DNA of 64,000 nt from an uncultured Alphaproteobacteria bacterium (GCA_944389535.1 CALXMS010000002.1:129041-193040), one strand, 5' to 3'; counted from the first letter of the stretch, positions 1 through 9,546 are shown. The notes: a model not told the origin generated them from the sequence alone. Translations and numbers: made by a program.

Positions 1-58
1 TAATATTCGTAATTTTACGTTATTTCAATAAGTTTTTATCAGCAGTATAACAGGATTC

Positions 59-87
59 TTGAAAATATTTTTCGCTTTTGTTAGGAT
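59..87 (+). promoter_or_regulatory. Candidate sigma70-like promoter (TTGAAA -17 bp- TAGGAT) upstream of the first nuclease-like ORF
   Basis: TTGAAA at 59-64 and TAGGAT at 82-87 with a 17-bp spacer; AAGGAAAGGA RBS precedes the ATG at 118. Confidence 0.3.
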
Positions 88-117
88 AAAAAGTGTTTTA
101 AGGAAAGGATAGAATTC

Positions 118-720
118 ATGACAAAGAATGAACTGTTTTTAGAATTGGCTAAACCGAACGCACAAGGCGTTAGTCGTTGGGTACGTGTTACAGAATTTGT
201 GGGGAAATATGCTGATCTGGCTTTTGGAAACGGTGCATCTTGGGCTAGAAAAGAATCGTCCTTGGCAAAAAAATATATTGTAGAATTTGATAAAACTATA
301 ACCAGCGGAAATGGAATTGATGCCATCAGACTAAATGGTTTGAATAACGGGGATTTTTCGCAACACATAAGTCCAGAAATAAAAAAGGTTATAAAAGCCC
401 AAAGGTGTGTTGTCTTAGGAACCTCTAATCCAGAAGTGGATCATAAAAATGGTATGAAAAATGAAGCTAGAGTCATGAGAAATGAAGAACAGCGTTTGTC
501 GGATTTTCAACCGTTAAGTAAAGCCGCCAATGATGCAAAACGACAATTTTGCAAGGAATGTATGAGAACTCGTACAAGATATGATGCAAAAAAGTTGGGG
601 TACCCAATGTCATACTATAAAGGTGGTGCACACCACAATTTTGAAGAAGACGCTTGTGTTGGGTGTTATTGGTATGATCCCAAAGAATTTAAAAAACATT
701 TAAAGAAAAAAGAAGACTAA
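118..720 (+). CDS. Hypothetical protein, candidate HNH/beta-beta-alpha-Me-type (Zn-ribbon) endonuclease. Probable restriction subunit of the adjacent R-M-like cassette.
   Basis: 200-aa ORF with a strong RBS. Contains D108-H109-x-N-G followed by Asn residues and two CxxC pairs (C145/C148, C180/C183), reminiscent of Zn-containing HNH nucleases. Lies 15 bp upstream of the next ORF and faces two DNA MTases. Confidence 0.4.
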   Translation: MTKNELFLELAKPNAQGVSRWVRVTEFVGKYADLAFGNGASWARKESSLAKKYIVEFDKTITSGNGIDAIRLNGLNNGDFSQHISPEIKKVIKAQRCVVLGTSNPEVDHKNGMKNEARVMRNEEQRLSDFQPLSKAANDAKRQFCKECMRTRTRYDAKKLGYPMSYYKGGAHHNFEEDACVGCYWYDPKEFKKHLKKKED

Positions 721-734
721 AACAGGGGGGGCGC

Positions 735-1895
735 ATGTATCACGTGTTTGTAGTTAACGATGTTACGTTCAAATATCACTTGGAATATTTGTTTGCAGGT
801 ACTTGCGCACTTCAAAATCCAGATTTTTTAGAAGATAGTGAGTATCGCAATCCTTCAAATAAAAATGATGGTGTAACACCAAAGCAAGAGTTATCAATCT
901 GTGGAATGATAGCAGATGTTTCAAGAATAAGACCTGGCGATAAAGTTATATTTTATCTTACACAAACAACAGAACATGAGGGTATGTTTTTTGGAATATT
1001 TGTTGTAAAAGGACTAGCGTTTTTTGATTCAAATGATGGTAATTATTTGTCGCCTCAGCTCGGAGTAAATCTGAATTTTAGGGTTATATTGTCACCAGAT
1101 AAAGTTTATGCACGAGGAGTTAGTGAGAGAGAAGCGTTAGATAGTTTACGTGGAATTACACACCCAAGTCAAATGTGTTGGAGTATGATATATAGAAAAT
1201 TAAAAGGTAAACGTGGTTGTACAATGATCACAGATTATGAAGCCTATAGATTAGTCAATCTAATCAAAAAAGCTAATAATGGTAGGGAATTAAAATCAAA
1301 ATGTTTTACGTATGACAATGAGTTAAATCAAATTACAAGCAATGAACAACGTAATCCTTACAGGGGCACAAAGTGTGATCTTGATGTTAAAGATAGAATG
1401 TTGGTAAAAGCAGAACGTCAAAATAAATATGAAGCACATTTACAGGCATATGTTTTGCAACACATAGATAAAAAGCCATTAAAAGATCTATTAAATATAG
1501 ACACAAATGTACCAGTGTGGATTGGAAATGAAGTATCTTGTGGTGTAGGAATGCAGAGCATAGATATAATGACTCAGCAATGTGGAAAAAAAGATATTTA
1601 CATAAACGTTATAGAATTAAAATGCGTGGAACCTTATGATGATATTCTAGATAAACAATTGCCGAAATATGAGAATTGGATTTTGGATTATATTTCTCCA
1701 TTATATCAAGAAAAACATGTCCATATTCGTCCAATAATAATCGCCAAGTTATTTGGCCTGAAAGAGCAGACAGGGTGTTTTGTTCAAAAATGTCAAAAGA
1801 TAAAAAGTTACACAACGGGCAACACAACCGTTGAACCGGTTTGTTATATTGGATATACTATTGATGAAGATATAAAATTTACCAAGTTGGTTTAA
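735..1895 (+). CDS. Hypothetical two-domain protein: N-terminal PUA-like (EVE/ASCH-like) domain plus C-terminal PD-(D/E)XK-like nuclease motif. Candidate (modification-sensing?) restriction endonuclease.
   Basis: 386-aa ORF with an AGGGGGGG RBS. The N-terminus carries a 'GDKVIFY...GMFFGIFVVKG' pattern typical of PUA-like/EVE beta-barrels. The C-terminus carries 'KDIYINVIELK' (D-x6-E-x-K), a PD-(D/E)XK-like motif. Its stop codon is 1 nt from the stop of the convergent MTase. Confidence 0.4.
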   Translation: MYHVFVVNDVTFKYHLEYLFAGTCALQNPDFLEDSEYRNPSNKNDGVTPKQELSICGMIADVSRIRPGDKVIFYLTQTTEHEGMFFGIFVVKGLAFFDSNDGNYLSPQLGVNLNFRVILSPDKVYARGVSEREALDSLRGITHPSQMCWSMIYRKLKGKRGCTMITDYEAYRLVNLIKKANNGRELKSKCFTYDNELNQITSNEQRNPYRGTKCDLDVKDRMLVKAERQNKYEAHLQAYVLQHIDKKPLKDLLNIDTNVPVWIGNEVSCGVGMQSIDIMTQQCGKKDIYINVIELKCVEPYDDILDKQLPKYENWILDYISPLYQEKHVHIRPIIIAKLFGLKEQTGCFVQKCQKIKSYTTGNTTVEPVCYIGYTIDEDIKFTKLV

Positions 1896-1896
1896 T

Positions 1897-2682
1897 TTAT
1901 TGTTTCTTGAACACAATAATATATTCGTGTTTGAAGACATAAAAGTCACTATTTAATGCTCTGTAACGCCAAATTGCGTGCTTATTGGATTTGCCCTTTG
2001 TTTCTTCAAAATTTTTTATCAAAATAGCTTTAAGTATGAAATTTTTACGCATAAATAAATTCATACAATAAAAGCCAAGGGGGGTAATCTGACTGTTGGA
2101 ATATTTATCGCCGATAACGACAGCGCAATATCTTCCTTTCTCCAAATGCTTTGTTGTATTATCGATAATTGCGCTAAAAGAATCCAAGAAATCATTCAAG
2201 TTTTTTGAATTAGATAAATCGTTCGCATCTTCAGAAAACTTCACAATATCCCAATAGGGGGGATGCAAAATTACAAACTGAACTTTTTTTATACCTAAAC
2301 CTTGTAGTTCTTTTTCTAAGTCAACAGAACGACTATCTCCCACAATAATTTTACTGGTAATATTTTCTTTCTTTTCCGTGATTATTCTGCGATATGCCTC
2401 GACTGCAACATCACGCTGCAACTCTATGCCAATCGAATTGCGGTTCATCCTTTGAGCTTCGATCAATGTTGTGCCGCTGCCCATAAAGGGGTCTAATACC
2501 CAATCGCCAGATTTGGTGTACCTTGTTAATAATTGATGCGGAATTTGTGGAATAAAATTTCCATGGTAATGTCCACTATGCGCACCAGAGTTGTCGCGTT
2601 TTTCTATAATCCATAGTGAATCTGTATATATATCCCCGTATTCTCTCCATCGTTGTATATCAATATCGTTGTAGCGAGACAT
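1897..2682 (-). CDS. SAM-dependent DNA amino-methyltransferase (N6-adenine or N4-cytosine; PF01555-like, motif I DPFMGSGTT, motif IV variant HPPY)
   Basis: 261 aa. 'DPFMGSGTT' at roughly aa 65 and 'VQFVILHPPYWD' at roughly aa 150. The ATG is 1 nt after the stop of the upstream Dam-like MTase. Confidence 0.75.
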   Translation of the reverse strand: MSRYNDIDIQRWREYGDIYTDSLWIIEKRDNSGAHSGHYHGNFIPQIPHQLLTRYTKSGDWVLDPFMGSGTTLIEAQRMNRNSIGIELQRDVAVEAYRRIITEKKENITSKIIVGDSRSVDLEKELQGLGIKKVQFVILHPPYWDIVKFSEDANDLSNSKNLNDFLDSFSAIIDNTTKHLEKGRYCAVVIGDKYSNSQITPLGFYCMNLFMRKNFILKAILIKNFEETKGKSNKHAIWRYRALNSDFYVFKHEYIIVFKKQ

Positions 2683-2683
2683 T

Positions 2684-3691
2684 TTAACTGTCCTTTTTTA
2701 CAAGGCAATGTAGATATTCAATGGTTTCGTTAGCGGATATATTGCGGTTTTCATCTTTGTCAGCCTTGAACCTGCGATACGTTTTTGTATAAAAAGAATA
2801 TTCGCCATACTTTGACATTATATCTTTGATTTGGTCAAGGGACATAAGCCCCTCGTTATTATAGCTCAAGAAGATGTATTTAAACTTTGCTTTCTTAATC
2901 AAATCTTCAAAAACGTCGCATACGGTTTTTGCAGAACAAAATGCGCTTTTTTGATCGGAATAATTTCTAAGACCCGTGACCCCCTTAACGGTTGGGTTAT
3001 CATATTTTGCGATAGTTTCAAGCACATGATAATTTGCACAGTACTGGCGTTCATTATATGGTGGGTCCAGGTATAATACATCGCCCTCGATCTCATTTAC
3101 CAGTTCGTTAATATCTTTGTTATAAGCTTTGCCTTTTGGACCGTTTACAATCGGCAATGGTTCCAATATAAAATCCTTTGCTGCGGACTTTTTGATGTTT
3201 TTCAGAAAAGCACCGTACACAGAAGCTGTATTTGCATATTTATCAATAGAATTTATAAGAGAAGCTAAATAATAGAAATAAGTGTCTTTATCAATTTCAT
3301 TTGCTTTAAGCAATTTTTCTAGCTCTGTTCGTATGGCATCGCATTTTCTGCCATTGGAATCTGTAAAATAATTCCTGCCGGAACCAGATCCAGCACAATA
3401 ATTATTATAAATAAAGCCGTCAATTCCTGGTAATGAATTTAGATGATCCAACAAGTCTGTTCGTACGGAATCAGTGTTTTCTATCAGGTGTTTATTTACA
3501 ACAAAACTGTAATATTGCAGGTCATTTGATAGAACTTTGCAGCCAAGGCCTCTGTAATATGCCCCAACAACACCTGTACCGGCAAATAAGTCTGCAAAGG
3601 AATAAGGGGTGCCATCTTCGTAATTAGTAACTTTCTTGACGGTTTCGTGTAAAAAATCTAATAAAGAGTACTTCGACCCTATGTAATTCAT
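2684..3691 (-). CDS. Dam-like N6-adenine DNA methyltransferase (MethyltransfD12 class)
   Basis: 335 aa. N-terminal 'MNYIGSKYSLLDFL...FADLFAGTGVVG' and 'LYLDPPYN' motifs are characteristic of the Dam/DpnM/T4 Dam family. Confidence 0.85.
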   Translation of the reverse strand: MNYIGSKYSLLDFLHETVKKVTNYEDGTPYSFADLFAGTGVVGAYYRGLGCKVLSNDLQYYSFVVNKHLIENTDSVRTDLLDHLNSLPGIDGFIYNNYCAGSGSGRNYFTDSNGRKCDAIRTELEKLLKANEIDKDTYFYYLASLINSIDKYANTASVYGAFLKNIKKSAAKDFILEPLPIVNGPKGKAYNKDINELVNEIEGDVLYLDPPYNERQYCANYHVLETIAKYDNPTVKGVTGLRNYSDQKSAFCSAKTVCDVFEDLIKKAKFKYIFLSYNNEGLMSLDQIKDIMSKYGEYSFYTKTYRRFKADKDENRNISANETIEYLHCLVKKDS

Positions 3692-3937
3692 CCGCGTTTC
3701 CTTAAATGTTTCTCAACAATCCTTAATACAGTTAAATATCGTTGTTGAATGATAAGCATTTTTTGTGCAAAAAAGCAAATGGTTTTTAAGCTTGTTTAGA
3801 AAAACTTATGAAAAAACAATTTGTTGAATAAAATAATTTTTATGTTTCTATGTTTTTTTCACATCGCTGACATTTGAAATAATTTGCGCTGGATCCGGCT
3901 GAGTAACCAGGCTTGTTGGCAAAAATATAAAAATAAT

Positions 3938-3970
3938 AAAAACACCGCCTTTTGTGGCGGTGCTTTTTTC
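3938..3970. terminator. Bidirectional rho-independent terminator hairpin (CACCGCC-TTTTGT-GGCGGTG) flanked by A and T runs
   Basis: Perfect 7-bp GC-rich stem followed by a T-run on the + strand and preceded by an A-run; terminates the minus-strand TA operon. Confidence 0.6.
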
Positions 3971-3981
3971 AAACATATTGC

Positions 3982-4317
3982 TTACATAGCTGTTGCTATG
4001 TTCGCTTTTTTATTGTCGTTAGATGCTTTTGGAGTAAAACTGACTTTTAAACCTAATGCATCTATTGTTTTAAATACTGTTTCTACATTAGGACGACGTG
4101 CCCCAGAGAAACTTTTATATAAAGATTCGCGACCTACACCTATCTCTTTTGATATTTTATTTATGCTACGTGCTTTGGCAACATCACCAAGAGCTATTAA
4201 GAAAAATTCAATATCATTTTCTTCCCACGCAGCTTCAAGATAGTTAGCGATATCTTCTTCTGTTTTAAGATGATCAAGAATGTTCCATTCTGTCACCTTG
4301 TTACGCTCCTTTTTCAT
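3982..4317 (-). CDS. Addiction-module antidote protein (HigA-like, HI1420/TIGR02684-type antitoxin)
   Basis: 111 aa. AAGGAG RBS 6-7 nt upstream. Lies immediately downstream of the toxin gene in the toxin-first (HigBA-like) order. The sequence resembles the HI1420 antidote family. Confidence 0.75.
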   Translation of the reverse strand: MKKERNKVTEWNILDHLKTEEDIANYLEAAWEENDIEFFLIALGDVAKARSINKISKEIGVGRESLYKSFSGARRPNVETVFKTIDALGLKVSFTPKASNDNKKANIATAM

Positions 4318-4348
4318 TTTTTACTCCTTTGAGTAAAGTAGTTTCATA

Positions 4349-4639
4349 CTACTGGTTTGCCAAAATTTTCTTGGCTTTTTCTATATCTGACTGTTGGGTT
4401 GATTTATCGCCGCCAATCAGTAACAAGATTATTTCCTCGCCTCGTTGGGTGTAATAAACCCTATAGCCTGGACCATAATCTATGCGCAACTCGAAGATGC
4501 TATCCCCCACAGATTTGCAATCGCCAAAATGTTCTTGGGTAGCAATTCGTCTGAGCCGGACGTCTATCCTTGCCTTCGCTTTACTATCTTTTAATTTGTT
4601 ATACCACCTTAAATACTCGTTTGTTTCTACTATTACCAT
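4349..4639 (-). CDS. Addiction-module killer protein (RelE/HigB superfamily, HI1419/TIGR02683-type toxin)
   Basis: Contains 'FGDCKSVGDSIFELRIDYGPGYRVYY...LLIGGDKSTQQSDIEKAK', the hallmark of the HI1419 killer family. The ATG at 4639 has a GGAGC RBS. The six-frame track begins 2 codons earlier at a TTG. Confidence 0.8.
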   Translation of the reverse strand: MVIVETNEYLRWYNKLKDSKAKARIDVRLRRIATQEHFGDCKSVGDSIFELRIDYGPGYRVYYTQRGEEIILLLIGGDKSTQQSDIEKAKKILANQ

Positions 4640-4717
4640 TTTCAAAGCTCCATAACTGATTTCGTCCAGTCCCTACGTCCTTCATATACTCTCCCTTGTT
4701 GTTTTTGTTCGTTATTA

Positions 4718-4737
4718 TTGTATCCAAATGGATACAA
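4718..4737. promoter_or_regulatory. Perfect palindrome TTGTATCCA-AA-TGGATACAA upstream of the toxin-antitoxin operon; probable autoregulatory operator
   Basis: 9-bp perfect inverted repeat with a 2-bp spacer, about 80 bp upstream of the toxin start codon. Confidence 0.45.
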
Positions 4738-4765
4738 AAAGTCAAGAATTTTTTTATAAAAATTT

Positions 4766-5074
4766 TCACTGTGCTAAAACAGTCTTTTTCCACGATGCAG
4801 CCATTTGGGATAATTTGCGCTGGAGGCAGCGCAGTAGCCAAGCCTGGCGAAAGGTAAGTTTGCCGCCATTTGTTCTGCGTATTGCCGCTTCTAGTTTGCA
4901 TAACGAACGACAGGCGGCAAAGTAGAGCATAGTAAAATTTGTATTATGGTTAGGTTGTATCTCGTCAAAGTGCTTATACTTCATGTGCGTCCCCTTAAAA
5001 AAGTTGTCGTATTTGTGCTTATCTTTCCAAGATTGTCCAGTCATTTGTTCATAATGACAAAAATAAAAATACAC
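4766..5074 (-). CDS. Hypothetical ORF, possibly a gene remnant. The region has overlapping ORFs on both strands and no recognisable domain.
   Basis: 102-aa open frame; no RBS or domain recognised. Confidence 0.2.
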   Translation of the reverse strand: MYFYFCHYEQMTGQSWKDKHKYDNFFKGTHMKYKHFDEIQPNHNTNFTMLYFAACRSLCKLEAAIRRTNGGKLTFRQAWLLRCLQRKLSQMAASWKKTVLAQ

Positions 5075-5194
5075 AGATGTACACCAGATGTGTGATTTTT
5101 TGCAGAAAAAGGTTGGTATGCTGCGGTTTTTACTTTTGTGACAGACGGACTAGCGTTCCATAGTTCGCAGGCAAAAAAGGGCTCTTTTCAGGTA

Positions 5195-5307
5195 TGAAAT
5201 CAATACTGAAATCAGACCTGAAATCATACTGAAATCAGGTATGATTTCATCACGGTTTCATCTATGATTTCAAGTATGAAATCTGTGTGATTTCAGAGAT
5301 GATTTCA
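5195..5307. repeat. Phased array of ten 8-bp motifs: TGAAATCA x4 direct, then mostly the inverted form TGATTTCA, spaced 11-12 bp
   Basis: Motif starts at 5195, 5207, 5219, 5230, 5242, 5253 (degenerate), 5265, 5277, 5288 and 5300. Mean period is about 11.7 bp. Located between the TA/remnant region and the 3' end of tRNA-Asn. Confidence 0.8.
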
Positions 5308-5450
5308 GCAGTAATGGTATATATTACTGTGTGTCAAATATATGTTTTTGTTTTATAACTAGGGCAATTTAGAGCCATTTTATCCAATTTTGCATAAAAA
5401 CGGGGTAGAAAACAGACAATAAAAAATCCGCAGAAATCTGCGGAAATCTG

Positions 5451-5526
5451 TGGCTCGGGCAACTGGACTCGAACCAGTGACATACGGATTAACAGTCCGT
5501 TGTTCTACCGACTGAACTATGCCCGA
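5451..5526 (-). tRNA. tRNA-Asn (anticodon GTT)
   Basis: 76-nt cloverleaf on the minus strand. 7-bp acceptor stem TCGGGCA/TGCCCGA, anticodon loop CTGTTAA, T-loop GGTTCGAGTCC, encoded CCA. A hairpin at 5421-5446 follows the 3' end. Confidence 0.9.
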
Positions 5527-5650
5527 ATAACGTTCGTCTATCTTATACTACTTTTTTGCCCTTTTCAAGTCTTTTTTTATTCGTTGCCATTTCTCTTTTA
5601 TGGTGCTATATTCCTTACCGTCCAATACTTATTAATACAGAGGTAATCAA

Positions 5651-6466
5651 ATGCTACTGAAAGGAAAAAAAATTCTAATTACAGGCGTTGCTAACGACTG
5701 GTCTATGGCTTGGGCTATCGCTAAACGGGCTCATGAGGAAGGTGCGGAAATCGCAATGCCATACGCTATGCCTAACCTGGAAAAGCGCGTGCGCCCGCTG
5801 GCAGAATCCATCGGCGCTAAATTCGTCCAGGAATGTAACGTGCAAAACGATGAACAGATGGATTCTTTGTTTGATAATATCGAAAAAGAATGGGGAAAAT
5901 TAGACGGTATGTTACACGCCATCGCTTTCTCTGATAAAAATGAATTGACAGGGCGCTATGCAGATACAACGCGCGCAAACTTTAAGAATACAATGGACGT
6001 TTCCGTATATTCTTTGGTGGATTTAACCAGACGTGCTTCTAAACTTATGACAGATGGCGGAAGTATCGTAACGCTGACTTATTATGGCGGCGAAAAGTCC
6101 GTGCCAAATTACAACGTTATGGGTGTCGCAAAATCTGCTCTGGATAGCAGCGTTCGTTATCTGGCTTCTGATTTGGGACGCGATAAAATTCGTATTAACG
6201 CAATTAGCGCAGGACCTATCATGACATTAGCGTCTTCTGGCGTTGGAGGAATGAAGTCTATGTTGCGTTTGAACGCAGAACAAACACCATTGCGCCGCAA
6301 CATGACGCTGGATGACGTTTCTGGTGCCGCAGTTTACTTGTTAAGTGATTTGTCTAGCGCCGTTACGGGCGAAGTTCATCATGTTGACTGTGGATATTCA
6401 ACAACTGGTATGATACCAAACGAATTGAAAGAGGTTCTATTAAAAGGCTTAGATGAGCAGAACTAA
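5651..6466 (+). CDS. fabI: Enoyl-[acyl-carrier-protein] reductase (NADH) FabI
   Basis: 271 aa. The N-terminal Rossmann motif 'ILITGVAN' and overall similarity to the FabI SDR family, plus a conserved Tyr/Lys catalytic region. Confidence 0.9.
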   Translation: MLLKGKKILITGVANDWSMAWAIAKRAHEEGAEIAMPYAMPNLEKRVRPLAESIGAKFVQECNVQNDEQMDSLFDNIEKEWGKLDGMLHAIAFSDKNELTGRYADTTRANFKNTMDVSVYSLVDLTRRASKLMTDGGSIVTLTYYGGEKSVPNYNVMGVAKSALDSSVRYLASDLGRDKIRINAISAGPIMTLASSGVGGMKSMLRLNAEQTPLRRNMTLDDVSGAAVYLLSDLSSAVTGEVHHVDCGYSTTGMIPNELKEVLLKGLDEQN

Positions 6467-8940: not shown

Positions 8941-9546
8941 TAAACCAAATTTATAAGCTGCACCAATATAAAACTCTGTAGCATCAATTTCTGTTGATGT
9001 ATTTCCCATGTCTATATCACCATAGTTTTGGTATTTTAGCCCTAAGTTTAAATCAATGCGACTATTCAATGCGAAATTTACACCAACCATGGCTGCCCAT
9101 GACATGTCTGCGGTTGCGTCGGAAAGATTGATGTTACCTTCGACGTTACCCCATATACCAGAAATTCCGATTCCCAGTCCTGCATACGGTTCAACAGCAC
9201 CGCCGAACTGTTGGTATAAGTATACGTTCAGCATGTTTGCCCATATATTAAAGTTAAAATCACTGCCATATTTTTCTTCGCCACCGCCGGTGTAAAGACT
9301 TTCAAATTCTATTTTTACATGGTCTGTTAGTCTATTGCCGATGTATGTACCGATACCGAAACTGTCGTTACGTATGGTTGTGCCAGTACCGCTGTGAGGC
9401 TTAAAATCAAATGCAATGTTTTCGTTTTTGTGTAATCTGATACCGACATAATTATCTCGTTTCTGTGGGGTAGTATAATCATAATAATCATCGGCATATG
9501 TCGGCAGTATGATGGCACACGCAATAAACATAGGTAAATACTTCAT
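8938..9546 (-). CDS. Outer-membrane beta-barrel protein (small OMP, OmpW/opacity-like) with signal peptide
   Basis: 202 aa with an N-terminal signal peptide, alternating amphipathic beta-strands and a C-terminal '...AAYKFGL'. Confidence 0.7.
   Translation of the reverse strand: MKYLPMFIACAIILPTYADDYYDYTTPQKRDNYVGIRLHKNENIAFDFKPHSGTGTTIRNDSFGIGTYIGNRLTDHVKIEFESLYTGGGEEKYGSDFNFNIWANMLNVYLYQQFGGAVEPYAGLGIGISGIWGNVEGNINLSDATADMSWAAMVGVNFALNSRIDLNLGLKYQNYGDIDMGNTSTEIDATEFYIGAAYKFGL

Follow-up and report, generated by a model that had tools for sequence, protein, structure and literature searches.

Do the four genes that face each other near the start of this stretch form one restriction-modification (R-M) system, and what does the second of its two nuclease genes contribute? 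The window, by which we mean the whole 64,000-nucleotide stretch that was analysed, carries open reading frames at 118-720 (+, 200 aa), 735-1895 (+, 386 aa), 1897-2682 (−, 261 aa) and 2684-3691 (−, 335 aa). The stop codon of ORF2 (TAA) occupies 1893-1895 and the reverse-strand stop of the N6_N4 methyltransferase (MTase) gene 1897-1899, so that nt 1896 is the only spacer between them. Similarly, the N6_N4 start lies at 2680-2682 and the stop of the D12 MTase gene at 2684-2686, which leaves nt 2683 as the sole spacer. The original prediction had described these four ORFs, their strands and the convergent layout with 1-nt junctions, and the sequence confirms it. It had also placed the first two genes 15 bp apart, where we counted 14 nt (721-734), though their co-directional adjacency holds. 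The features are as follows:

59..87, + strand: weakly supported candidate promoter before the nuclease operon (TTGAAA-17-TAGGAT with TG)
118..720, + strand: ORF1, predicted NlaIII/IceA1-family HNH (beta-beta-alpha-Me) Type II restriction endonuclease (PF05315, motifs)
721..734, + strand: 14-nt spacer between the ICEA gene and ORF2, with the G-rich ribosome-binding site AACAGGGGGGGCGC
735..1895, + strand: ORF2, nuclease of an uncharacterised family, 386 aa (structure prediction, fold search)
1897..2682, − strand: second MTase, predicted permuted N6_N4 amino-MTase, 261 aa (PF01555, PDLC03351)
2684..3691, − strand: first MTase, D12-class N6-adenine DNA MTase, 335 aa (PF02086, PDLC03257)
3692..3915, − strand: upstream (promoter) region of the MTase operon and right end of the conserved cassette (homology limits)

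The ICEA gene and ORF2 form one operon, and in many relatives the two genes overlap. Promoter-like sites are no more common in this region than in shuffled sequence, so 59..87 is a candidate promoter at most. Positions 1-117 are conserved with the related locus L001 and not with L007; on the right the homology stops at 3915 (L007) or 3892 (L001). No controller (HTH) gene was found within 3692..3915, whereas in locus L004 an HTH_26 gene precedes D12. The GC content of the cassette is 0.30-0.38 compared to 0.38-0.46 for the adjoining housekeeping genes. A toxin-antitoxin pair of the HI1419/HI1420 type follows at 3982-4645 and a tRNA-Asn at 5451-5526, just as expected from the earlier description of an AT-rich segment beside a TA module and a tRNA gene.

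We then assigned the genes to families. ORF1 matches the Pfam ICEA profile (PF05315) over its full length with E 2.6e-70 and 236.8 bits (cut-off 24), residues 2-196 covering profile positions 1-202 of 218. The pair D108-H109, a conserved Asn and the Cys4 zinc site C145xxC148/C180xxC183 are kept in 49 homologs. The HNH-like guess for ORF1 was thus correct and the DH, Asn and double CxxC residues are as predicted, but ORF1 is not the unrecognised nuclease partner it was taken for: the PF05315 match marks it as a textbook NlaIII/IceA1-family enzyme. Judged by this profile it is not novel and is classed as an ICEA/NlaIII-family HNH restriction endonuclease, HNH being the superfamily to which NlaIII has been assigned (PMC2441816). 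From its family we predict that it probably cuts at CATG and is blocked by Cm6ATG. The ICEA family and its D12 partner are tied to CATG in the literature (PMC4202330), and the two are linked in the window's cassette and in most related loci.

The D12 MTase matches PF02086 (E 7.1e-46, 157.4 bits, cut-off 22) and the PADLOC MTase_II profile PDLC03257 (E 1.4e-108), and its motif I (FAGTG) and motif IV (DPPY) are conserved in 59 homologs. A further match is to fused MTases of 646 aa (PDLC03287), in their N-terminal half. Its ortholog in the C. jejuni cluster has been identified as that of the CATG-specific hpyIM (PMC4202330). D12-class MTases are the usual partners of NlaIII/IceA1-type enzymes. 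For the second MTase we found matches to PF01555 (E 9.6e-25, 88.3 bits, cut-off 26.7) and to the MTase_II profile PDLC03351 (E 2.1e-112). Here motif I, DPFMGSGTT (aa 64-72), comes before motif IV, H140-PPY143, and the HPPY is invariant in 56 homologs; the beta-class order (IV ... TRD ... I) with (D/S)PPY is not found in this protein. Motif order and profile place it in a permuted N6_N4 subfamily, with predicted m6A or m4C amino-MTase activity. The idea of an R-M cassette in which two amino-MTases face two nuclease genes is supported.

For ORF2 we used structure prediction and a fold search. Residues ~1-140 form an EVE/YTH-like domain of the PUA superfamily, with EVE, VcaM4I, THYN1 and YTH reader domains as the closest folds, and residues ~220-386 a PD-(D/E)XK domain with a confident nuclease fold. 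The PUA-superfamily domain therefore lies N-terminal to the nuclease domain. The latter is similar to N.BspD6I, BsmI and NucS and to the modules with which FokI and MDRE-type enzymes cleave non-specifically, though there is no Pfam DUF91 match and no NucS N-terminal domain in ORF2. Further conserved elements are a basic segment (M147-CWSxIYRKLKGxRGCTMIT-166) and the invariant residues E233, E266, D277, E294 and K296, giving D277-x16-E294-x-K296. The original prediction of an EVE/PUA-like plus PD-(D/E)XK fusion, and of nuclease-like character for both ORFs, agrees with the fold search for ORF2 and the ICEA profile for ORF1. The D-x6-E-x-K motif proposed at the time has to be replaced, as its Asp (D287) is not conserved while D277 is invariant. 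Pfam EVE scores only 13.8 bits against a threshold of 23, so that conservation of the reader pocket is putative, and the sequence alignment with PH1033 spans aa 62-102 only. As far as we checked, the ORF2 family and its near-obligate MTase linkage are undescribed. We infer its catalysis, its methylation sensitivity and a CATG specificity shared with the other parts.

The distribution of the genes across related loci gives the clearest picture of how they belong together. We compared 44 ORF2 loci at the species level. A D12 and/or N6_N4 MTase gene lies no more than 4.5 kb from ORF2 in 43 of them, and the two frequently overlap; both MTases adjoin ORF2 in 38, and all four genes occur together in 32. 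As the families recur together in 32/44 loci, the association goes beyond chance. The genes are arranged in at least eight orders, including the interleaved ORF2>D12>ICEA-like>N6_N4. ORF2 is present at only 8 of the 21 D12+N6_N4 pairs; the other 13 have ICEA alone or R3, a third uncharacterised family of small nuclease-like proteins without a reader domain. ICEA occurs without ORF2 in 11/21 of these pairs, and ORF2 without ICEA in 10/44 loci. The short N6_N4 genes lie directly behind D12 in one operon in all cases (21/21), with or without ORF2. ORF2 is thus nearly always accompanied by MTases and not vice versa, the kind of asymmetric dependency that R genes typically show towards M genes.

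Smaller and larger sets of parts were also observed. ORF2 and D12 alone, as overlapping genes with ORF2 first, were found in Helicobacter (L080, L085), and ORF2+ICEA+D12 without N6_N4 in L046, L066 and L069. Overall, at least eight loci have an intact ORF2 with D12 and no N6_N4 (L013, L017, L021, L046, L055, L066, L069, L080, L085); ORF2+N6_N4 without D12 also occurs. In L039 and L043 a frameshifted N6_N4 gene lies beside intact D12 and intact ORF2. A long N6_N4 gene followed by ORF2 forms an overlapping two-gene operon in 22 loci, and in 17 loci R3 follows the long N6_N4 in ORF2's position. Three nucleases and two MTases were found in L004, L040, L044 and L110. Intact solitary ORF2 genes occur in L065 and L070, and ORF2+ICEA without a nearby MTase in L057. 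Pycsar defence cargo sits at the M/R junction in L115, L121 and L155. Defence genes unrelated to the cassette accumulate at this convergent junction, an insertion hotspot, and because of this the four-gene form might also be a simple co-location.

With respect to the target, CATG is most depleted in ORF2+D12 loci, where its observed/expected ratio (O/E) of 0.29-0.32 ranks 1 of 256 tetramers; the ratio is 0.45-0.53 for four-gene loci and 0.62-0.71 for long-N6_N4 loci, all of these being values without a matched control set. The depletion holds within the cassette genes as well as outside them. It is mild in the window's own host (O/E 0.83), and the depletion of GGCC, GATC and CTAG equals or exceeds that of CATG. 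Based on these counts and the family assignments, the cassette parts probably share CATG as their target.

Our main reading, to which we assign a probability of about one half, is a horizontally mobile, modular Type II R-M system of interchangeable nucleases and methylases that share a single site, probably CATG; ORF2 would be its second endonuclease countered by the MTases. The minus-strand operon would supply the D12 m6A methylase and the permuted HPPY methylase, which mark the host copies of one short target, and the plus-strand operon two unrelated endonucleases, each cutting DNA without the mark. In ORF2 the EVE-like domain and the conserved basic segment may recognise the DNA or base and the FokI/NucS-like PD-(D/E)XK domain would cleave. 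Since every part would act on the same site, either methylase alone would protect against any cassette nuclease, and ICEA, ICEA-like HNH enzymes, ORF2 and R3 could therefore be freely combined with D12 and/or N6_N4. Having two or three cutters that attack a single site by different mechanisms would provide a back-up when a phage inhibitor or a base modification stops only one of them. The second methylase may add DpnA-like extra protection. We consider it unlikely that ORF2 is the first PUA/EVE nuclease to work with a resident methylase, its pocket reading the base methylated by its partner. If so, its cutting might be licensed or vetoed by a directly read self-mark, or it may target partly marked DNA, for example phages with one of the two marks, and cassettes that direct two or three unrelated nucleases at one site would counter phage anti-restriction.

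The alternative that survives best, though we rate it as rather less probable than the shared-target system, is that ORF2 is a Type IV/Type IIM modification-dependent endonuclease riding in an ordinary NlaIII-type R-M cassette. A modified base that is flipped out (5mC, 5hmC, a phage hypermodification or m6A in another context) would be bound in the EVE-like pocket, with cleavage by the nuclease close by, so that one mobile unit would hit unmodified and modified invaders and host CATG methylation would be no substrate. An EVE/PUA domain joined to a nuclease otherwise marks modification-dependent enzymes (PMC6765204, PMC7897488), and the reader-like N-domain neighbours and the FokI/MDRE-type cleavage module agree with this, as do the solitary and MTase-less ORF2 genes and the Pycsar cargo at the junction. 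However, an MTase adjoins ORF2 in 43/44 loci, compared to <6% within 3 kb for PUA-nuclease MDREs (PMC6765204). ORF2 also often overlaps the MTase gene (after the long N6_N4, or ahead of D12 in Helicobacter), its exchange with R3 in two-gene operons is the pattern of a cognate REase, and the sub-threshold EVE score leaves the pocket putative.

A further explanation, which we regard as distinctly improbable, is that two independent Type II systems became nested by insertion, an outer ICEA+D12 (CATG) and an inner ORF2+N6_N4 with another site. The order ICEA [ORF2 > < N6_N4] D12 in the window is exactly nested, ICEA+D12 stands alone elsewhere, e.g. H. pylori iceA1-hpyIM (PMC4202330), long N6_N4+ORF2 is a stand-alone pair, and both the hotspot and the weaker CATG depletion of long-N6_N4 loci fit. 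On the other hand, ORF2 stays intact with D12 where N6_N4 is missing or frameshifted, every short N6_N4 lies directly behind D12, most of them without ORF2, and the supposed pairs are interleaved elsewhere. It is highly improbable that ICEA and ORF2 are heterodimer subunits in the style of BbvCI, BtsI or BspD6I, each nicking one strand with one MTase per strand: gene adjacency and overlap, two MTase classes, the N.BspD6I/BsmI-like nuclease domain and the fused-MTase match speak for it, but each nuclease occurs without the other (11/21 and 10/44), two-gene M+ORF2 systems exist, one MTase of either kind suffices in many loci and NlaIII-family enzymes are established to act alone on palindromic CATG. 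Obligate co-inheritance of ICEA and ORF2 was not observed and the Type IIT/IIS heterodimer is largely refuted; the asymmetric-site Type IIS idea of the original prediction is contradicted by the same loci, in which ICEA and ORF2 are each found with either MTase alone.

How does the cassette compare to known systems? For C. jejuni ST-677, Helicobacter, Riemerella and Gallibacterium the literature describes an 'IceA1/NlaIII gene cluster' that includes two MTases (PMC4202330), and the cassette core therefore belongs to a described family. The earlier view of the whole combination as undescribed narrows, as far as we checked, to the ORF2 family and its MTase linkage: the basic R-M core is known, and the second nuclease and the mix-and-match of parts across bacteria are not described. 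With NlaIII/HpyAI (iceA1-hpyIM) the window shares the ICEA-family ORF1 and a D12-class adenine MTase of ~335 aa; the classical systems have two genes, whereas here a permuted HPPY MTase and ORF2 are added, and of these ORF2 is not described in the reports on them. In the ST-677 cluster a second adenine MTase is present as well, and the nuclease is separated from the hpyIM ortholog by two loci that have not been described (PMC4202330).

DpnII (dpnM-dpnA-dpnB), like related two-MTase systems for GATC (PMC3812788), likewise joins a D12 MTase to a second, N6_N4-family MTase, but its target and nuclease families differ, and the window's two nucleases are unrelated to each other. Pfam profiles found no DpnII-family nuclease (PF04556) in the window, and the second MTase is not a DpnA ortholog, as only motif I gave a local match to the PDB entry 'DpnA'. 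The predicted DpnII-like analogy nevertheless gained support from Fusobacterium vincentii, in which a GATC cassette combines D12, R.DpnII, an Mrr_cat nuclease and an HPPY MTase homologous to the window's second MTase, a parallel design built on a GATC enzyme.

Among the PUA-superfamily MDREs we compared VcaM4I and TspA15I (EVE-HNH), MspJI and AspBHI (SRA-PD-(D/E)XK) and the YTH-like McrB N-domains. MTase neighbours are rare there, unlike for ORF2, which in addition has a NucS/FokI-type PD-(D/E)XK domain and the extra basic segment. NucS/EndoMS (DUF91) differs in its N-terminal domain, and the context of ORF2 is without mismatch repair or PCNA/clamp partners. CviAII (C^ATG), FatI (^CATG) and UpaP162 (CA^TG; PMC6191088) are other CATG endonucleases of unclassified fold and candidate isospecific enzymes, compared to ORF2 and R3 by description only. 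No domain can be recognised in UpaP162, whose gene, too, directly follows that of its MTase (PMC6191088), but the partner MTase is annotated as m5C-like. LlaJI-type operons (PMC11779793) also consist of four genes, two MTases and two restriction genes. Their R1 and R2 are obligate McrBC-type partners for an asymmetric site, whereas the window's nucleases are independent modules. SsuDAT1I, with two MTases and two isoschizomeric REases for one site, resembles the proposed arrangement in directing two nucleases at a single target.

The cassette proves to be real and looks like a functional R-M unit, and its kind is known: the NlaIII/IceA1 type with two MTases. To this is added an extra nuclease (ORF2), an uncharacterised and widely distributed protein built on a reader-domain fold. 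The listing of open reading frames for the window gave the same coordinates and strands for the four genes as the original prediction, and the neighbouring toxin-antitoxin module and tRNA gene were also recovered:

118-720, plus strand, ORF1 (ICEA nuclease, 200 aa)
735-1895, plus strand, ORF2 (386 aa)
1897-2682, minus strand, N6_N4 MTase (261 aa)
2684-3691, minus strand, D12 MTase (335 aa)
3982-4645, minus strand, RelE/ParE-family toxin (TIGR02683, 8.6e-37) with HI1420-type antidote (TIGR02684, 1.2e-28), both profile matches
5451-5526, tRNA-Asn

The predicted 1-nt gaps correspond to sole spacer nucleotides at 1896 and at 2683, whereas the spacer between the two plus-strand genes measures 14 nt instead of the claimed 15 bp; it contains a G-rich ribosome-binding site. 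The segment is AT-rich as described, with a GC content of 0.30-0.38 compared to 0.38-0.46 in the adjoining fabI and ligA region. A promoter scan of the cassette region returned sites no more numerous than in shuffled sequence. The start codons of both nuclease genes fall inside CATG (window 117-120, tTCATGa, and 734-737, gCGCATGt), which could be a coincidence with odds of 1 in 4 per gene. In the related locus L004 a 68-aa HTH_26 gene (8955-9161), possibly encoding a controller (C) protein, lies immediately upstream of the D12 MTase; the window cassette has no such gene.

ORF1 is no unrecognised R-M partner: it matches Pfam ICEA, the IceA1/NlaIII family, over its full length (E 2.6e-70). This family comprises Type II restriction endonucleases of the HNH kind (PMC2441816 for the assignment to HNH), and D108-H109 and the two CxxC pairs of ORF1 are conserved among its homologs. 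The 335-aa MTase is of the D12 class (PF02086, 7.1e-46; PADLOC MTase_II, 1.4e-108) with the motifs FAGTG and DPPY, and its homologs in the protein collection carry generic names. In the 261-aa MTase (N6_N4_Mtase, 9.6e-25; PADLOC MTase_II, 2.1e-112) motif I stands ahead of motif IV, which reads HPPY and is invariant in 56 homologs. The plasmid records matched by ICEA and N6_N4 carried no annotation.

For ORF2 we obtained no above-threshold family match in Pfam, NCBIfam or PADLOC and none with phmmer against the PDB, where a profile search matched only 40 residues, to PH1033. The search with tblastn against annotated phages and plasmids gave no match, and IMG/VR contained only 2. The BFVD fold search found no full-length structural relative and hence no link to the chlorovirus R.CviAII could be drawn. 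The AlphaFold2 model, computed from an alignment of 16 homologs, is confident (pLDDT 87.3, pTM 0.88). In the homolog alignment E233, E266, D277, E294 and K296 are invariant, so that the E and K of the predicted D-x6-E-x-K motif (E294/K296) stand while the aspartate originally chosen, D287, is not conserved. Invariant positions of the N-domain include H3, K13, H15, Y18, F73/Y74 and F85. A highly conserved basic segment (147-166, MCWSxIYRKLKGxRGCTMIT) joins the two domains. The family is compact, with a constant length of ~370-400 aa and no fusions to further domains; among 1.84 billion representatives it comprises more than 1000 clusters at 90% identity and 415 at 50%. Its members in the large protein collection are unnamed save for one 'DUF91' label.

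To describe the genomic context of ORF2 we scanned one genome per species, kept the best 80 of 267 relatives and compared six-frame ORFs around them to the four window proteins and to profiles made from these. The hosts include Clostridia, Bacilli, Bacteroidota, Melainabacteria, Mucispirillum, Helicobacter, a CPR bacterium and an archaeon. In 44 loci the sequence extended for 2.5 kb or more on either side of ORF2. A D12 and/or N6_N4 MTase lay within 4.5 kb in 43 of them, both MTases were present in 38, and 32 additionally carried an ICEA or ICEA-like gene. We encountered at least 8 gene orders, including:

ICEA> ORF2> <N6_N4 <D12 (the window's own; commonest)
ORF2>D12>ICEA-like>N6_N4 (present by 49% identity, L005/L006)
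D12>ORF2>ICEA-like>N6_N4
ORF2>ICEA>D12
N6_N4>ORF2>ICEA>D12

The ICEA-like gene of the second order matches the PADLOC Type II REase model PDLC03537 (2.3e-28) and also the catalytic half of ICEA. Recurrent co-occurrence in so many arrangements indicates that the four genes form one module that is repeatedly rearranged, and that their proximity is not due to chance. In the Helicobacter MAGs, a synteny comparison showed that the flanks of ORF2 differ from the cysE-iceA-hpyIM slot of H. pylori.

A metagenome scan with the N6_N4 alignment yielded 579 relatives, and we retained 80 loci. In these the MTase exists in a short (~260 aa) and a long form (~380 aa). The short form stood directly behind D12, as an operon, in all 21 well-flanked loci, which carried the following nucleases:

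Nuclease content of the short-N6_N4 loci
ICEA only: 9
ICEA and ORF2: 7
ICEA and R3: 2
R3 only: 1
ICEA, ORF2 and R3: 1
no nuclease: 1

Only about 38% of the D12 and N6_N4 pairs thus carry ORF2, whereas ORF2 nearly always has a methylase. This asymmetry is expected where a product is dangerous without its methylase: the nuclease needs the MTase, but not conversely. The long form has an N-terminal extension of ~120 aa without a Pfam match and lacks D12. Behind it comes ORF2 in 7 of 11 cases and R3 in 3 of 11, the stop codon of the MTase mostly overlapping the start codon of the next gene. Examples are L078 (6834-7985), L081 (786-1943), L084 (9127-10317) and the metagenome loci L128-L168; the form was found mostly on environmental contigs (sediment or groundwater-type).

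R3 had not been annotated before; members of this family are 209-280 aa long, share the motif HxWxNxxT...(I/V)D(L/I)(F/Y)..PFD(L/V)K and have no match in Pfam or PADLOC. Its short and long forms are homologous (blastp E 3e-17). We counted 33 occurrences:

Positions of R3
Behind long N6_N4: L128, L133, L135-L137, L140, L143, L144, L149, L160, L163, L166
As third nuclease-like gene: L004 (5336-5989), L040 (5370-5993), L110 (8032-8685), others

Exactly at the convergent junction of MTase operon and ICEA, three loci contain a Pycsar pair (PycC cyclase, PADLOC 2.5e-85, with a small TM protein; L115 5845-7066, L121 6784-7999, L155 6784-7999), and two others carry an unknown protein of 651 aa that has TM segments at its C-terminus (L117 6798-8753, L123 4759-6723). 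This junction appears to be a hotspot at which defence cargo inserts.

The uptake of such unrelated cargo would also suit an ORF2 that is a modification-dependent (Type IV) enzyme, as would its plan, since EVE/PUA plus nuclease is the signature of these enzymes, and the few loci in which an intact ORF2 has no MTase nearby (L057, L065, L070). We nevertheless consider this reading rather unlikely. Lutz et al. found that under 6% of PUA-nuclease fusions lie within 3 kb of a DNA MTase, and counted this scarcity as support for modification dependence (PMC6765204); ORF2 shows the opposite. There are also two-gene operons in which ORF2 overlaps an MTase gene, and in these R3, a protein without a reader domain, can take its place. 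Two nested R-M systems are an improbable arrangement. If ORF2 had a separate site with its own methylase, loci with ORF2 and D12 but without N6_N4 would be self-destructive; they occur in Helicobacter (L080/L085, with overlapping genes) and in L046, L066 and L069. The same applies to L039 and L043, where N6_N4 is frameshifted while ORF2 and D12 are intact, and conversely to the pairs of ORF2 and long N6_N4 without D12. A two-factor model, in which ORF2 cuts DNA marked by D12 only and the second MTase adds a protective mark, was set aside as it would make the loci with ORF2 and D12 only suicidal. The co-occurrence data likewise leave hardly any room for a heterodimer of ICEA and ORF2 on an asymmetric site (asymmetric-site Type IIS systems were one of the comparisons in the original prediction), as each nuclease is found without the other.

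The four nuclease families combine with the two MTase families in nearly every way, up to three nucleases with two MTases (L004, L040, L044, L110), and the simplest account of this near-free combination is that all modules act on the same sequence. The activity and specificity of the cassette parts are inferred throughout. On this account any methylase of the set would protect against any nuclease, the target being common. Classical cases of CATG as target are NlaIII and iceA1-hpyIM of H. pylori. In the literature the ICEA family with a D12 partner is tied to CATG, and in C. jejuni ST-677 the 'IceA1/NlaIII gene cluster' contains a pair of MTases, while its nuclease is separated from the hpyIM ortholog by two undescribed loci (PMC4202330). 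We computed tetramer avoidance on carrier DNA as the observed count over a maximal-order Markov expectation (O/E), ranked among 256; for the inside-gene and flank values each group also pools metagenome loci.

CATG O/E in the window and in groups of carrier loci
Window (64 kb): 0.83
Four-gene loci: 423 kb, 0.46, rank 3; 114 kb, 0.45, rank 2
Four-gene loci, pooled: inside genes 0.53, rank 3; flanks 0.45, rank 3
ORF2 and D12: inside genes 0.32; flanks 0.29; rank 1
D12 and N6_N4 without ORF2: inside genes 0.59, rank 4; flanks 0.59, rank 3
Long N6_N4: inside genes 0.62; flanks 0.71; rank 4

The depletion agrees with CATG as the common target but does not settle the matter: GGCC, GATC and CTAG are equally depleted in the carrier loci, and all the figures come from carriers, with no matched controls beside them.

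The mild depletion in the window's host may be due to recent acquisition. With 2.98 GATC per kb compared to 1.23 per kb in the remaining window, the cassette is consistent with such an event, and the strong avoidance of GATC (O/E 0.47), TCGA (0.52) and GGCC (0.58) across window 1-64000 suggests other R-M pressures on the host. The nearest genome for ORF2 among the best 80 of 267 relatives is L007, an Alphaproteobacteria MAG from sheep colon (96% identity), whose homology covers window 118 to 3915 at 93%; for the related locus L001 it extends from 1 to 3892 at 85%. The cassette adjoins tRNA-Asn in all three. In L007 and L001 it passes straight to the tRNA, and as the toxin-antitoxin pair is missing from both of these closest relatives it represents a separate insertion. 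L001-L003 (89%-identical relatives) carry a cas9 (HNH_4/RuvC_III)-cas1-cas2 locus at 1-3340 with the cassette two genes downstream, which places it in a defence island there.

New here are the ORF2 family, its dependence on MTases and the combinatorial swapping of nuclease modules. If ORF2 is a methylation-sensitive enzyme on a reader fold, it breaks a working rule of the sequence-based prediction of Type IV enzymes, according to which a nuclease with a PUA domain depends on modification and has no MTase. Two uncharacterised nuclease families, ORF2 and R3, are defined; they are likely CATG isoschizomers or neoschizomers and could be of value as tools. As many as three nucleases and two methylases, unrelated among themselves, are exchanged around one target, which is an unusually clear instance of mix-and-match evolution and offers a testable model of redundancy against phage anti-restriction. 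Such cassettes are frequent in gut anaerobes and probably act as barriers to their genetic manipulation.

We also compared the cassette to known systems. The '2M+2R' system of C. cellulovorans was discarded as a match, being likened to LlaJI and of a different kind. DpnII is the classical two-MTase system (PMC3812788). A parallel for GATC is a co-directional block in Fusobacterium vincentii (L169, NZ_CP084075.1 655158-665859, genes 2321-5702; the record is labelled plasmid though 2.1 Mb long). It combines R.DpnII (PF04556, 5e-109) and an Mrr_cat nuclease with two MTases, one Dam-like and of the D12 class, the other a permuted N6_N4 enzyme with 'THPPY' that shares 35% identity with the second MTase of the window. 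The design of two MTases and two nucleases is thus repeated around a GATC enzyme. A further precedent is SsuDAT1I, in which two MTases accompany two isoschizomeric nucleases.
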